Of a DNA stretch of 64,000 nucleotides, positions 2,054-14,261 are shown piece by piece; the stretch's first letter is position 1; each line of letters begins with the position of its first letter. Origin of the DNA: a virus. Made by a program: the position numbers and the translations under genes. The stretch spans positions 1 through 64,000 of the IMG/VR virus record IMGVR_UViG_3300009788_000096. One strand, 5' to 3'. The notes below the pieces were generated by a model, which ran no database searches, was not told where the DNA came from, and was given only the letters and a program-made list of their open reading frames with translations.

Positions 2054-2126
2054 GGCTGCCCTCATCGGGCCACAGAGCCAATCCTGTGACGACGACCGCG
2101 GAACCACTATCCACGGTCGTTTCGGC
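2054..2126 (-). ncRNA. type II hammerhead ribozyme HH15 (core variant CCGAUGA)
   Basis: CC-GAAAC-stemIII-GTC^-stemI-CCGATGA-GG; loop I GGCT pairs with tail AGCC; predicted cut 2091/2090. Confidence 0.8.
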
Positions 2127-2129
2127 ATA

Positions 2130-3320
2130 TTAGCGTTTACGACTCGCCATCAATGTTTCATCATGGAAAATTTGGTAGTAATCGCGACTTTCGTTTTCAC
2201 CGGAAAGTATATGCAAGATATCGAAACCTTGTTTTCTCGCAGTTTTCCTCACGACGGCGAGAAGTTTAGCTTTCGCCTTGGATTGTGAAATCTTGAATTT
2301 CTTGGAAATGGATTTCGCAATTTCACCAACAGTTGATCCTTCATTAACCATAGCGAGAATGGCATGTGCAGGACTGCCGGGAAGACGACCGAAGAGTTTT
2401 TGAATTTCATCCAGTTGACGCCTTTTAATAACCCTTTTCGGCTTTTCCGGTTCCTTTGGAGCCCGACGCTTAATAACCCGTTTTGGTTTTTCTTCTGCTT
2501 TTTTCCGCCGCTTGATGGGATCACGAACAGCGACCCACCGATCCCCGTCATACCTGCACGTTGTGCCTTTGATGTTTTTCTTATCACCAACTTTGGGATC
2601 ATCAGGTTTCGGCTCCGGCTTTTTTTTCTTTTTGATCTTTTTCTTCGGTCGTATAAGGTGTTCAGGCACTTCCATTTTCTTCGCCTTATAAACACCAGTC
2701 ACCGCATCCCGGCAATCAGTTATATAATTTTCGGGAAGTGTTTCGCCTTTGAGCCACCGGACCGGCAACGAGTTTAAGGCCTCCAATACGAAAGAAATTA
2801 CTTCAGGTTCGATGTTATCGAAGAAGTCCCTTTCGCTTGGAAGATGATGAACCTTATAACGGCCAGCTTTAAGGTGTGCCACGAAATCGCCAGAAGGTTT
2901 TTTAGCTTTCGCCTTTTTCTTTTTAGGCTCCGGCTTTTCCTTCGCCTTTTTCTTGGCTGCGGTCTGTTTGAAATCTTTAGCCAAATCTTTATCAGCCGCT
3001 TTTTTCATTTCCGCCACTTTCTTCGCCGATGTTTTCTTTTTGGCCTTTTTCTTTTTCGGCGTTGGTGTCGCGGAAGTCAAACCGATGTCTTTGTCAACCG
3101 GTGGCGTCTCGGTTTTCGGCTTGACACCACTCGTTAACACTTTGACTGCGCTATGCGCAAGGCATTTTGAGCAGGTGATCTGCTCGCAGGTTTTATCATC
3201 ATCGATGACCAAATCGCCTGTGCGCTTGTCACAGATAGCAACGTTCCCATCTGTGACCGCATGCAAATGATGCCTCTTAGCAGCCGGATTTTTACCTACT
3301 CCTAAAACTGTTTTTGTCAT
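2130..3320 (-). CDS. Lys-rich protein: N-terminal Zn-finger, IKRR repeats, C-terminal winged-helix-like domain
   Basis: 396 aa; H..C..CxxC N-terminus, low-complexity K/P/A centre, 'STVGEIAKSI' HTH-like end. Confidence 0.7.
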   Translation of the reverse strand: MTKTVLGVGKNPAAKRHHLHAVTDGNVAICDKRTGDLVIDDDKTCEQITCSKCLAHSAVKVLTSGVKPKTETPPVDKDIGLTSATPTPKKKKAKKKTSAKKVAEMKKAADKDLAKDFKQTAAKKKAKEKPEPKKKKAKAKKPSGDFVAHLKAGRYKVHHLPSERDFFDNIEPEVISFVLEALNSLPVRWLKGETLPENYITDCRDAVTGVYKAKKMEVPEHLIRPKKKIKKKKKPEPKPDDPKVGDKKNIKGTTCRYDGDRWVAVRDPIKRRKKAEEKPKRVIKRRAPKEPEKPKRVIKRRQLDEIQKLFGRLPGSPAHAILAMVNEGSTVGEIAKSISKKFKISQSKAKAKLLAVVRKTARKQGFDILHILSGENESRDYYQIFHDETLMASRKR

Positions 3321-3347
3321 AATACTACTCCTCTTCTGGTTATGGGG

Positions 3348-4765
3348 TTAGACGTCAACTCTTCGTTTGGCATCGGTCACTGCAACGGATGCAGGAACGG
3401 CCTCGGCTGGCAGGCATGTATTCTTTGCCCACTCGCGCAAGGCTATGATGTCGCCACTAAGAGTTATAGCTTGCGGTATGATACAATCTTGTGCTTTAAT
3501 AAGATCAATTCCGCGCATATCAGCTATATGAACCATGGCCTCAATTTCAGCACCGGTGAAGTCTTTCATTGTGGGAAGTACTTCAGGATAATCCAAACCA
3601 GCATTGTTCACATAGTGTTTTAAAATACTTTTGCGAACTTTAGCGGTTGGCAAGTCAATGAAAAAAGGACTTGTATCCCATCGGCCGGGACGTAGAAATT
3701 CGCCCGGAATCCCACGGAAACTATTTGCTGTGGCAACGATATAAATTCCTTCAGGGCGATCCTGAAGAAACTCAAGCCAACGACCGTTGCTCTTCGGGTA
3801 GTACCACTGTCTAAGTCCCCGGAACCACCGGCACCAGCGAATTGTTTTTCGAACTCATCTATAAGGACGACGCAGTTTCCAATGGCACAAATTAAGTCAA
3901 TTGTGTCATTTATATTTTGATCAGTTTCGCCTTGGTACTTACTGTAAAGTCTTCCCATATTAACGGAAAGTCCGAACTTCCCAGTTTCACCAACAATAGC
4001 CTTCATTAAGGAAGTCTTCCCGCAGCCAGGAACACCAATGGTCATGAGACCTTTAGCTCGCGGGTCGTAAATGGAATCCATAATGAAGTCCTTGATTTCT
4101 TTATAGCCGATAACATCTTGGAAAGTCAAGTTATTCGGCAAGACATCAAGGAAACCGGATTTAGCAATCGTCATAGCTTTATAGTCATTGATCGTACGGA
4201 GATCGAATTCGCCATGTTCGACGATTGATAATGAAAAAACATTGTCCAGTTCTTGTCGAGTCAAACCCATAGCTGATTTGCAAATCAGATCCATCCGGTC
4301 CTTTTCAGGAATGAATGATTCGTCTGGAACCGCCATGGAAGCGGCATCGAGAATCTCTTCCTTATCAGGAAGTTGCAGATCAAGAAGGATAAAATCCTTT
4401 TTTAACTCGGTGGGAATCTTTTCAATCGGACTTATGACTACTGCCGCCTTGCCTTGATTGGCCCAGCCCAGATTAAGGTTTTGAAGTGTTTGAATAATCT
4501 GAGGCTTGTCCATATACCAATGATAGTTATAAAGGAACATAACCGTATTCTCATCGGCATCATTTAAGGCGTCCAGTGGAGTCATGGGATTATTGTCTTT
4601 GAGGCAATCCCAATCTGTGACTTTAAATTTGCCACCATTTTTGAGTTGAAAGTCTTCGAGTGCTGGGTACACATTTCGGCGAACCCTATTTGGTTCATTT
4701 GTCTTCATCCAGAAAAGTGGAAATCCAGCTCGTAGGTAGTTAATCAACTTCGCTTGTGTTTTCAT
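3348..4765 (-). CDS. Ycf46-like AAA+ ATPase, split by a 1-nt frameshift near 3786
   Basis: Walker A GVPGCGKT, Walker B VLIDEFEK; the alternative frame continues WLEFLQDRPEGIYIVATAN...RPGRWD (sensor 1/Arg finger) into ORF 3348-3653. Confidence 0.85.
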
Positions 4766-4798
4766 AATTAATCCTCCTATAAAAAAGTTATAGTTTAA

Positions 4799-4859
4799 AA
4801 GCTACCTCATCAGTATAGCTTGCTTAAGGCCATAGACCCTCGGTGGCCGAGGGTTTCGG
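4799..4859 (-). ncRNA. type II hammerhead ribozyme HH14
   Basis: CCGAAAC CCTCGG-CCA-CCGAGG GTC^ TATGG..CTATA CTGATGA GG; loop AAGC/tail GCTT; cut 4835/4834. Confidence 0.92.
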
Positions 4860-4860
4860 A

Positions 4861-5070
4861 TTACTTCAACATGCCTTTGTGTTTCATTTCTGCACAAAGT
4901 CCGCGAGCTTCGATAATCAATGCTTTTAGTCTTTCTTCATCTTCGTTTTCAAATTCTTCATCAGAATCAGCTTGTGGAAGGTTTGCTAATTGAATAACTA
5001 ATCGTCCACATTTATTCAGCATTGATTCTTCCATTAGCGCTTGAGCAAATAGCTCGGTTTTTGAACTCAT
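4861..5070 (-). CDS. hypothetical protein
   Basis: AAAGGAG SD before MSSKTELF. Confidence 0.65.
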   Translation of the reverse strand: MSSKTELFAQALMEESMLNKCGRLVIQLANLPQADSDEEFENEDEERLKALIIEARGLCAEMKHKGMLK

Positions 5071-5103
5071 ACTTAAATCATCTCCTTTCGGATTATACAC
5101 TTA

Positions 5104-5286
5104 TCAATTAATGTCAGGTAATTCTTTTCGCCAGATACTGAAATCGCGGACCATTTCATCAAATGACTTCCATGTAAATCGGACATGAAGTTTCTTGCCA
5201 TTTTCATCAGTCAAATGCATGACCATTTTCTTTCCACGCCGAACCTTCAAACCGCGATACTCTTTAATTTCAATTCCTTTCGCCAT
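5104..5286 (-). CDS. hypothetical protein
   Basis: Tightly packed in the operon. Confidence 0.6.
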   Translation of the reverse strand: MAKGIEIKEYRGLKVRRGKKMVMHLTDENGKKLHVRFTWKSFDEMVRDFSIWRKELPDIN

Positions 5287-5288
5287 AG

Positions 5289-13434: not shown

Positions 13435-13435
13435 A

Positions 13436-13678
13436 TTAAGCATTTTCGATATCGAAGCAGATGTCACGCTTCAACTGGGCAAGCCTGGCAAGTCTTTTCA
13501 TACCGTATTCTTTTGCAGCAATACGAAAAGATTCAAGCTTAACCAAGTTGGTCATCTTGTCGATACGATCACTTAACTGTCCATCGTCCATGGAAGTAAT
13601 ACGTTTAACAGCATGAGCGATAGAATTTTCAGTCACTTTAGTCGAAAGAATTTTTGCGATGTTAATTGTGTTACTCAT
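13436..13678 (-). CDS. hypothetical protein
   Basis: GGAGG SD before MSNTINIAK. Confidence 0.7.
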   Translation of the reverse strand: MSNTINIAKILSTKVTENSIAHAVKRITSMDDGQLSDRIDKMTNLVKLESFRIAAKEYGMKRLARLAQLKRDICFDIENA

Positions 13679-13714
13679 AATAAAATCCTCCATTATTTAG
13701 TTATTAACTTCATT

Positions 13715-13781
13715 TGGCTACCTCATCAGCACCGACCAGCCACGGCCAGTGGACTGGGCCAACTAAAAGCCCAGTTTCGGT
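13715..13781 (-). ncRNA. type II hammerhead ribozyme HH2
   Basis: Full core; loop TGGC/tail GCCA; cut 13752/13751. Confidence 0.88.
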
Positions 13782-13925
13782 TTACTTTTGGTAATGTAGA
13801 TAAACTAAGAGTTTTTGTTCGACAAGTAATAACGCGATGTGAAGCGTTATATTACTTGACCAGATTTGGAACGCGGTTTCTTTTTTCGTTTCCGTATGGA
13901 TCGCTCGTAATTGATACTTTTTCAT
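13782..13925 (-). CDS. small hypothetical protein (47 aa)
   Basis: AAGGAG SD, MKKYQLRAIH... Confidence 0.55.
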   Translation of the reverse strand: MKKYQLRAIHTETKKETAFQIWSSNITLHIALLLVEQKLLVYLHYQK

Positions 13926-13935
13926 TTTTCTCTCC

Positions 13936-14085
13936 TTAGAAGATTACTTTTTTAAACAGTTTAATTTGAAGGTTTAAAAACCATTGGAAATGATACCAGC
14001 GAGCTAAACGAACATTGGATTCAACATCGATATTGGATTCAACATCGATATTTGAACTATTACTTTTGGTAATTTTCTTTTTCAT
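13936..14085 (-). CDS. small hypothetical protein (49 aa) with an 18-bp tandem duplication (NIDVES x2)
   Basis: AGGAGG SD; in-frame direct repeat at about 14014-14051. Confidence 0.55.
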   Translation of the reverse strand: MKKKITKSNSSNIDVESNIDVESNVRLARWYHFQWFLNLQIKLFKKVIF

Positions 14086-14094
14086 TATAGCCTC

Positions 14095-14178
14095 CTAAGC
14101 CATATATAAAACAGTTGAAAACAAAGTAAAACACGAAATCGCGATAACAAGTAAAATCTTTTCATTCTTTTCTAACAT
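14095..14178 (-). CDS. 27-aa hydrophobic peptide, first gene of the early array
   Basis: GGAGG SD, MLEKNEKILLVIAISCFTLFSTVLYMA. Confidence 0.55.
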   Translation of the reverse strand: MLEKNEKILLVIAISCFTLFSTVLYMA

Positions 14179-14203
14179 TTAAAACCTCCGTTATATAGTT
14201 GTT

Positions 14204-14261
14204 TGACTACCTCATCAGTATCCAGCCATCACACTGGATAGACATCTAAAAGATGTTTCGG
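14204..14261 (-). ncRNA. type II hammerhead ribozyme HH1
   Basis: CCGAAAC ATCT-TTT-AGAT GTC^ TATCCAG..CTGGATA CTGATGA GG; loop TGAT/tail GTCA; cut 14241/14240. Confidence 0.92.

Follow-up and report, generated by a model that had tools for sequence, protein, structure and literature searches.

Multiple hammerhead ribozymes that flank individual genes or small blocks of genes were described in prophages by Perreault et al. (2011; PMC3088659), who proposed that they process long transcripts; triple arrangements cleave in vitro, and clustered phage hammerheads cleave both in vitro and in vivo (PMC3088659). The point about clustered prophage hammerheads was restated in a 2017 review (PMC6155905), the role of bacterial and phage hammerheads is regarded as unsettled in a review (PMC6765202) and type II hammerheads have been found by cyPhyRNA-seq to cleave in Desulfovibrio vulgaris cells (PMC8782182). 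The present analysis concerns an array of 15 elements, identified from their sequence as type II hammerhead ribozymes, in 12.2 kb of the minus strand of IMG/VR virus record IMGVR_UViG_3300009788_000096. The record is a tailed phage of 95,402 bp that CheckV rates as complete, and the window analysed here is its first 64 kb. The best explanation of the array, and a probable one, is that the ribozymes split a leftward transcript into about 15 insulated messages.

The prophage clusters of Perreault et al. share with this array the ribozyme class, the pseudoknot, the placement by small non-conserved protein genes and the proposed role, and their arrangement, in which several coding-strand hammerheads flank phage genes singly or in short blocks, is present here. 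Their tested examples are clusters of about three in about 2 kb, whereas the window holds 15 in 12.2 kb of a single operon, as copies of a uniform cassette, in a phage that appears to be lytic. The three D. vulgaris hammerheads (PMC8782182) belong to the same Rfam family (RF02276, Hammerhead_II) and lie near phage-like or hypothetical genes, and their cleavage in vivo was shown; they are scattered single copies that are silent on operon processing, in contrast to an array. The claim of the initial annotation that no such array had been described fails as a claim of novelty in kind, because both the clustered arrangement and the processing model were reported in 2011 (PMC3088659), and arrays of 8–10 copies are present in relatives of this phage as well; a literature search, from which subscription journals were mostly absent, found no paper on arrays of ten or more. 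In IMG/VR more than 119 contigs, several of them with dense clusters, matched a generic type II descriptor, and one phage outside the relatives found through the terminase or ATPase genes has at least ten RF02276 matches in 5 kb. Four such arrays elsewhere in IMG/VR also have the order stop codon, ribozyme, Shine–Dalgarno (SD) sequence and ATG, often more compactly. In an unrelated array of four hammerheads (L063, minus strand, reverse-complement positions 3746–4726) the ATG lies about 8–10 nt past CUGAUGAGG, and the GAGG of the catalytic strand appears to double as the SD sequence. The unusual feature of the array is its copy number; its kind is already known.

The order of parts is the same in all 15 elements, namely GAAA, stem III, the cut site, stem I and the CUGAUGA box, with loops capping stems I and III and an open stem II. 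A rule-based parse of the 15 copies gave stems of 6–9 bp (I), 6–13 bp (III) and 2–3 bp (II). The core (C3 U4 G5 A6 N7 G8 A9, G12 A13 A14, A15.1–U16.1 and H17) is complete in 14 of 15 copies, standard pairs occupy positions 10.1–11.1, 1.1–2.1 and 15.1–16.1 in equally many, and GUC is the cleavage triplet of 12 copies, the other three having CUA, AUC and GUA. A cmscan search with RF02276 (curated gathering score 37 bits) returned eight matches at the gathering score under default filters, all on the minus strand, and 14 of the 15 sites under laxer filters (E = 7.5e-10 to 3.6e-3), nine of them reaching 37 bits and five scoring 32.3–36.8 bits. The copy at 7272, which Rfam does not report, has a complete core by eye and scores 58.8 bits (E ~6e-12) with R2, one of two covariance models made for this analysis (R1 and R2), which was built from the window's own copies and gives 52–85 bits for every copy save two variants. 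RF02276 has no match on the plus strand, elsewhere in the 95.4 kb genome or in 14 control genomes, and no other Rfam ribozyme family was found in the 95.4 kb genome. The 15 minus-strand type II hammerheads of the initial annotation are thus borne out, with a complete element at every site starting within 4 nt of where it had been placed, and the parse reproduces the cut positions predicted there (4835/4834, 8505/8504 and 14241/14240).

Table 1. Features of the leftward arm. Coordinates refer to the window unless L001, a related phage, is named; hammerheads are numbered against the direction of transcription, cut positions are predicted, and scores are for RF02276 or R2 where a model is named.
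Feature	Coordinates	Strand	Triplet	Cut	Remarks
Terminator-like hairpin before first hammerhead	14272–14299	−			12 bp and U-run
Hammerhead 15, first transcribed	14201–14263	−	GUC	14241/14240	RF02276 49.9 bits
Hammerhead 14	13712–13782	−	GUC	13752/13751	RF02276 57.8 bits; upstream stop abuts stem II; three-way-junction fold on its own
Hammerhead 13	13365–13436	−	GUC	13405/13404	RF02276 57.3 bits
Hammerhead 12	12801–12868	−	GUC	12842/12841	RF02276 36.8 bits, R2 81.3 bits
Hammerhead 11	12309–12376	−	GUC	12350/12349	RF02276 40.2 bits
Hammerhead 10	11873–11940	−	GUC	11914/11913	RF02276 39.6 bits
Hammerhead 9, variant	11420–11507	−	GUA	11460/11459	RF02276 37.1 bits
SD and 4-codon mini-ORF after hammerhead 9	11359–11383	−			Read from sequence
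Hammerhead 8	10724–10791	−	GUC	10765/10764	RF02276 33.9 bits, R2 79.2 bits
Hammerhead 7	9828–9905	−	AUC	9870/9869	13 bp stem III; RF02276 34.4 bits, R2 52.4 bits
Hammerhead 6	9126–9191	−	GUC	9165/9164	RF02276 36.5 bits, R2 76.3 bits
Hammerhead 5	8466–8531	−	GUC	8505/8504	RF02276 39.7 bits
Hammerhead 4	7269–7334	−	CUA	7308/7307	Stem II GUC/GAC; R2 58.8 bits
Plain-hairpin junction, without ribozyme core	6731–6833	−			8 bp hairpin
Hammerhead 3	5542–5609	−	GUC	5583/5582	Stem II UC/GA; RF02276 40.1 bits
Hammerhead 2	4796–4861	−	GUC	4835/4834	RF02276 32.3 bits, R2 71.7 bits; upstream of AAA ATPase, syntenic in relatives
Hammerhead 1, last transcribed, variant	2050–2127	−		2091/2090 if active	RF02276 40.1 bits
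Strong terminator-like hairpin after DUF3150 gene	1093–1130	−			17 bp and U-run
Conserved operon core	1146–6730	−			DUF2997, 123-aa gene, AAA ATPase, 101-aa gene, DUF3150; common to relatives
Hypervariable array part	7335–14178	−			About 20 small ORFs, 18 without homologue in compared relatives (tblastn); 11 hammerheads
L001 two-tier stem-loops 1–5	L001: 6626–6738, 6292–6385, 5969–6072, 4961–5061, 4292–4389	−			
L001 two-tier stem-loops 6–10	L001: 3490–3594, 2791–2923, 1689–1776, 1049–1142, ~370–470	−			

Covariation within the window was computed from 13 copies aligned with Infernal, and in this alignment standard pairs fill 99.5% of the cells and compensatory double changes occur at 15 of 17 pairs. 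None of 500 shuffles equalled the observed covariation, and pairing falls to 33–46% once the partners are slid. The covariation earlier noticed at the pair flanking the cleavage triplet and in stem II is seen in this alignment: the 15.2–16.2 pair is C–G in 11 copies, G–C in one and U–A in one, and the outer pair of stem II is C–G in 11 and U–A in two. When 38 distinct copies, drawn from five phage genomes and two short related contigs, are aligned together, pairing is 98.6% and the covariation score 0.90, as against 0.22 when shuffled. In addition, loop I and the nucleotides immediately 3′ to stem II pair over 4–7 bp in every copy, which is the tertiary contact given for type II hammerheads (PMC3088659). 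The cognate pseudoknot duplexes have a mean of −5.7 kcal/mol against −2.9 kcal/mol for non-cognate ones (0 of 20,000 permutations as good), and individual copies range from −3.8 to −8.4 kcal/mol. An intact core, compensatory stems and a covarying pseudoknot argue for selection on the fold, since homology alone needs none of them. The same evidence bears on whether the elements could be inert relics, or selfish repeats, that play no part in expression, as might be supposed from two copies that look degraded and from the dispensability of hammerheads in relatives; the core has been kept with compensatory changes between genomes whose proteins are about 50% identical, the pseudoknot covaries and the elements keep strictly to one strand and to junctions, which leaves this explanation scarcely credible.

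The two copies in question are the variants that neither R1 nor R2 detects. The catalytic box of the copy at 2050–2127 reads CCGAUGA (U4C) and is caught in a competing local hairpin in the minimum-free-energy fold; the orthologues in three relatives are canonical. In the copy at 11420–11507, A10.1 lies opposite C11.1 and the long stem III contains one mismatch, and a three-way junction is nonetheless the predicted fold. The real gene behind this second copy begins 130 nt beyond a mini-ORF (open reading frame) of four codons, and the ribozyme and mini-ORF together look like a decayed cassette. A canonical core, which the initial annotation had assigned to all copies, is therefore found in 13, and the CTGATGA box in 14; neither change had been noticed. 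Because the acceptance rules that Perreault et al. apply to candidates include U4 and the 10.1–11.1 pair (PMC3088659), which these two copies violate, they may cut slowly or not at all.

Each unit consists of a stop codon, the ribozyme, a spacer, a strong SD sequence and the ATG. Stop codons adjoin 14 copies, as had been reported, at 0–4 nt from stem II in 13 of the 14 cases and at 11 nt in one, and each copy is followed by GGAGG 6–8 nt ahead of an ATG, the start codon after 11420–11507 being that of the mini-ORF. The distance from the cut site to the next ATG is 60–75 nt (182 nt after that variant), and a spacer of the AAUAAC type is conserved between ribozyme and SD sequence. A hammerhead occupies every array junction of at least 86 nt except 6834|6730, where there is a plain 8 bp hairpin; the remaining junctions are of at most 33 nt or consist of overlapping genes, and an apparent gap of 326 nt is a missed gene call.

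Differences among the copies could mean that cleavage is partial or conditional, with the strength of each copy or the presence of terminating ribosomes tuning the amounts and lifetimes of the messages. Stem lengths and pseudoknot strengths vary, two copies have weakening changes, a ribosome terminating 0–4 nt from stem II would cover its 5′ strand, and regulated cleavage has been raised for phage variants (PMC3088659). The other 13 copies, however, combine canonical cores with good tertiary contacts, tested examples of which are fast and constitutive, and none of the copies contains an aptamer-like insert, so that tuning of this kind is considered a minor possibility.

The first hammerhead stands directly behind the terminator-like hairpin 14299–14272, as the initial annotation had remarked, and the hairpin 1130–1093 lies past the DUF3150 gene, after the last hammerhead. 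No comparably strong terminator occurs between the two, and the latter hairpin is likely to mark the end of the ribozyme-punctuated unit. In a sigma-70 scan, sites were no more numerous than in shuffles, none was convincingly placed and no motif stood out at the junctions. An arrangement without a single polycistron, in which every unit has its own promoter and the ribozyme trims a variable leader or read-through RNA as a natural counterpart of RiboJ, would account for the uniform distance from cut site to ATG and for the conserved AAUAAC-type spacer. RiboJ increases the expression of insulated genes (PMC6206723), and the corresponding slots in L001 contain a stem-loop with a −35-like TTGAYT, resembling promoter-plus-stem-loop cassettes. 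No promoter-like motif is prominent in the window junctions, however; the stop codon abuts the ribozyme, which leaves no space for a promoter upstream of it within the junction, and units of up to five tightly packed or overlapping genes resemble operon segments. Separate promoters are accordingly thought improbable.

In the preferred explanation, processing of a leftward transcript, each ribozyme would fold during transcription and cut after its NUH triplet. The upstream product would carry a 2′,3′-cyclic phosphate and end in the stem III hairpin, about 30 nt past the stop codon, and the downstream product would begin with a 5′-OH on the stem I hairpin, followed by a near-uniform leader of 60–75 nt with AGGAGG 7–8 nt before the ATG. 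The transcript would be converted into about 15 messages of one to five genes that have the same kind of ends whatever the neighbour. By what is generally known of bacterial RNA decay, ends of this kind would be expected to protect the messages from 5′-end-dependent and 3′-exonucleolytic decay. The messages may also be insulated by the standard leader and strong SD sequence, by analogy with RiboJ (PMC6206723), in which a hammerhead before the SD sequence strips the upstream RNA to give a defined hairpin-led 5′ end; RiboJ was engineered from a type III satellite-RNA ribozyme, whereas the window has a natural type II ribozyme repeated 15 times. Cleavage, a single long precursor and the insulation or stabilization of messages are what this explanation would require, and the proposal of the initial annotation that a polycistron is systematically cut agrees with the cores, the coding strand and the intercistronic sites, which fit units of one to five genes.

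The early polycistronic transcript of phage T7 is cut by host RNase III at structured intercistronic sites into stable hairpin-ended messages. The likeness lies in a long phage transcript cut at intercistronic structures; T7 needs a host protein nuclease that acts on double-stranded sites, whereas here the RNA is proposed to cut itself and to leave 5′-OH and cyclic phosphate ends. In place of RNase III sites of the T7 type (about two helical turns) the window junctions hold hammerheads, and two-tier stems of about 20 bp are found only in L001, where they may represent a nuclease-dependent version of the same slot.

Since each excised unit would bear a 5′-OH and a 2′,3′-cyclic phosphate, the units might also be joined into circular mRNAs, either by the reverse hammerhead reaction on a chimeric ribozyme or by a host ligase of the RtcB type. 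At its 5′ end a unit would retain stem I, the box and the tail from one ribozyme, and at its 3′ end GAAA and stem III from the following one; with a CC/GG stem II in most copies, chimeric pairing is possible in 12 of 14 cases (hand count). This compatibility is uninformative because nearly all copies share the 2 bp stem II, and a contact of 2–3 bp over 0.3–2.7 kb would be very weak. A Pfam search of 20 large ORFs of the leftward arm gave replication, recombination and DNA-modification genes and no RtcB, RNA ligase or other end-healing enzyme such as polynucleotide kinase, nor an RNA polymerase, and Perreault et al. sought circular or spliced products and found none (PMC3088659). Circularization is therefore held to be very unlikely.

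Among relatives anchored on the terminase, most lack the region or the hammerheads; the only exceptions are two short contigs, L004 and L005, in which hammerheads lie some 2.4 kb upstream of the terminase. L001, the nearest of the long relatives (terminase identity 71%), has several arm genes in common with the window and no ribozyme of any Rfam class. Among loci anchored on the AAA ATPase, seven of nine have hammerhead arrays on the ATPase strand, three of which appear to be copies of one phage; these relatives are phages of 76–83 kb with whole-record counts of 4–10 hammerheads by Rfam and up to about ten by a model made here. All seven have a hammerhead some 30 nt upstream of the ATPase gene, and most have another upstream of DUF3150. 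The syntenic hammerheads of relatives at 44–58% protein identity have unrelated stems and intact cores.

Junctions that hold a ribozyme in one phage may hold a hairpin in another. Upstream of the ATPase a GC-rich hairpin replaces the ribozyme in L001, L175 and L176; upstream of DUF2997 the window has a hairpin (6731–6833) and L168–L174 have hammerheads; and upstream of DUF3150 there are hairpins in L174 and L176. The alternation of hammerheads and hairpins at the same junctions suggests a slot that serves transcript-end formation or stability and that can be filled in various ways. In the leftward arm of L001, ten junctions contain a two-tier stem-loop of about 20 bp in total (outer stem, internal loop and inner stem of 11–15 bp), the inner stem of which covaries, followed by the −35-like TTGAYT, an AAUAAC spacer and an SD sequence as in the window. 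No Rfam family matched these stem-loops at E up to 1; RNase III-type sites, promoter and stem-loop cassettes like the PeSL elements of T4-type phages, or an undescribed RNA motif are possible identities. The exchange of hairpin and hammerhead at three syntenic junctions, the permuted modules described below and the L001 stem-loops in the same slots are new.

The module formed by DUF2997 and the 123-aa gene and that formed by the ATPase and the 101-aa gene occur in L172/L173 in the reverse of their order in the window, L171, L168 and L174, and the module boundaries are marked by hammerheads in both gene orders. Furthermore, where L171 has one hammerhead the window has three additional small genes and one more hammerhead. 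The cassettes have a median identity of 69%, with exact repeats of up to 26 bp. Because modules are permuted and the region is rich in ORFans and dense in cassettes, a second, evolutionary role is suggested, and the cassettes of ribozyme and SD sequence likely mark joints of module gain, loss and permutation. The PeSL cassettes (PMC2839356, PMC4122927) are likewise short and repeated, flank ORFan genes of a hypervariable early region and coincide with joints of gene insertion, loss and reordering; they consist of an early promoter and a terminator-like stem-loop, in contrast to the ribozyme and SD sequence found here, and the window junctions show no promoter signal above shuffles that would correspond to the PeSL promoter.

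It can be argued further that recombination between these cassettes of about 100 nt, which would supply short homologies for inserting, losing and reordering accessory genes, is the main selected role and cleavage secondary, which would be compatible with the processing of a leftward transcript. Besides the PeSL precedent, the cassette similarity, the inverted module order with a hammerhead at each boundary and the extra block relative to L171, this would be in keeping with the identical copies within one genome in some relatives (equal scores), with an ORFan hammerhead-dense half that has almost no homologues in relatives and with the RecA-like recombinase encoded by the phage. Homology, however, does not require a conserved core, compensatory stems and a covarying pseudoknot, and the exact repeats are short. 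The permutation and the block insertion, both bounded by hammerheads, are seen in distant relatives only, and at about 50% protein identity no event has been caught in the act. Recombination as the main role is at present a tentative alternative. A similarly guarded view is taken of a broader reading, in which the junction slot is exchangeable among hammerhead, hairpin and two-tier stem-loop (possibly nuclease-dependent or promoter-bearing) and the hammerhead cassettes are recombination joints for the permutation of early gene modules and the acquisition of ORFan genes; its extension to excised units that are circularized and exonuclease-proof is less likely.

Several observations weigh against the processing of a leftward transcript into insulated messages. 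No promoter was found by the sigma-70 scan, which was no richer than shuffles, so that a single long precursor is an assumption. The hairpin before the first ribozyme, if efficient, would restrict transcription into the array; it shows no clear conservation in L004 or L005. Five copies fall slightly under the Rfam gathering score, stem II is no longer than 2–3 bp and the two variants break the rules of Perreault et al. The relatives L001, L175 and L176 carry the gene set and manage without hammerheads, and ribozymes are therefore dispensable for it. Cleavage is predicted to make the SD sequence more accessible in 11 of 15 units, though only modestly, the sole large effect being in the first unit, where it depends on the CCUCCUCC stretch of the leader. 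This stretch (14322–14331, minus strand) precedes the first hammerhead and can pair with the SD sequence of the first gene, the predicted accessibility of which is 0.03 in the precursor and 0.61 once cleaved; read on the plus strand, these bases make up an SD sequence ahead of a 5-codon ORF.

The array forms the head of a leftward arm that lies beside the terminase module and runs from about 14.3 kb past the left end of the record and resumes at its right end, from where it extends to about 58 kb. Rightward from 16.2 kb run the genes for terminase, portal, major head, tape measure and tail, and the leftward arm encodes helicase, primase, clamp-loader, Pol III alpha, gp32-like and RecA-like proteins together with radical SAM enzymes and TET-associated glycosyltransferases. 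The phage, of an uncultured lineage, is apparently lytic. A search for sequencing runs with the locus gave no RNA run and one DNA run, from a subsurface metagenome and probably the source of the contig. About 34 minus-strand ORFs with SD sequences, the majority shorter than 160 aa, lie between 14178 and 95, and GC skew is consistent with minus-strand coding. Comparison of the array proteins with Pfam and PHROGs matched only the AAA ATPase, DUF3150, DUF2997 and a zinc ribbon, with sub-threshold matches to DnaJ/Anti-TRAP-like CXXC and Lar-like proteins; the hypervariable 7 kb gave no recognizable functions in these databases other than zinc-ribbon-like motifs, and a megablast search with the array found no match in the collection of annotated phage records. 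The ATPase ORF (3620–4765, minus strand) overlaps the 101-aa ORF (3348–3653, minus strand), and the two cover positions 140–394 and 460–549, respectively, of phrog_8638 (568 positions); they are successive in relatives as well, and the pair is either a gene that has been split or a frameshift site.

A nearly ORF-free stretch of about 2 kb (14264–16233) separates the first hammerhead from a small-terminase-like ORF. It has direct as well as inverted repeats, among them several copies of TAGGCTAAAA around 15807–16016 and a 25 nt inverted repeat at 15807–15932, and is possibly an origin, packaging or regulatory region. Elsewhere in the phage, a 1125-aa ORF (L177:8673–12050, minus strand) combines Pol III alpha (PHP, NTPase and finger) with a C-terminal domain of the uracil-DNA glycosylase superfamily. 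Three radical SAM enzymes (one B12-binding and one SPASM) and two TET-associated glycosyltransferases, encoded at L177:12454–15112 and L178:206–3714, look like a DNA hypermodification module. A GC-rich gap of 211 nt between the gp32-like and RecA-like genes (L177:5451–5662; genome 69451–69662, minus strand) folds strongly, at −0.38 kcal/mol per nt, and matches no Rfam family at E up to 0.1. The phage genome contains two tRNA genes, at 20015–20086 (plus strand) of the window and at L177:180–251 (minus strand).

The array is a large case of a known arrangement and involves no new mechanism. Its uniform cassette of ribozyme, AU-rich spacer and strong SD sequence, each copy with its own pseudoknot, constitutes a set of ready orthogonal insulator parts. 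For the biology of these phages, the lineage is a natural comparison, with orthologous junctions that carry a ribozyme, a hairpin or a two-tier stem-loop and with ribozyme-bounded modules that have been reordered; the comparison bears on whether such ribozymes act as message insulators or stabilizers, as recombination joints, or as both.

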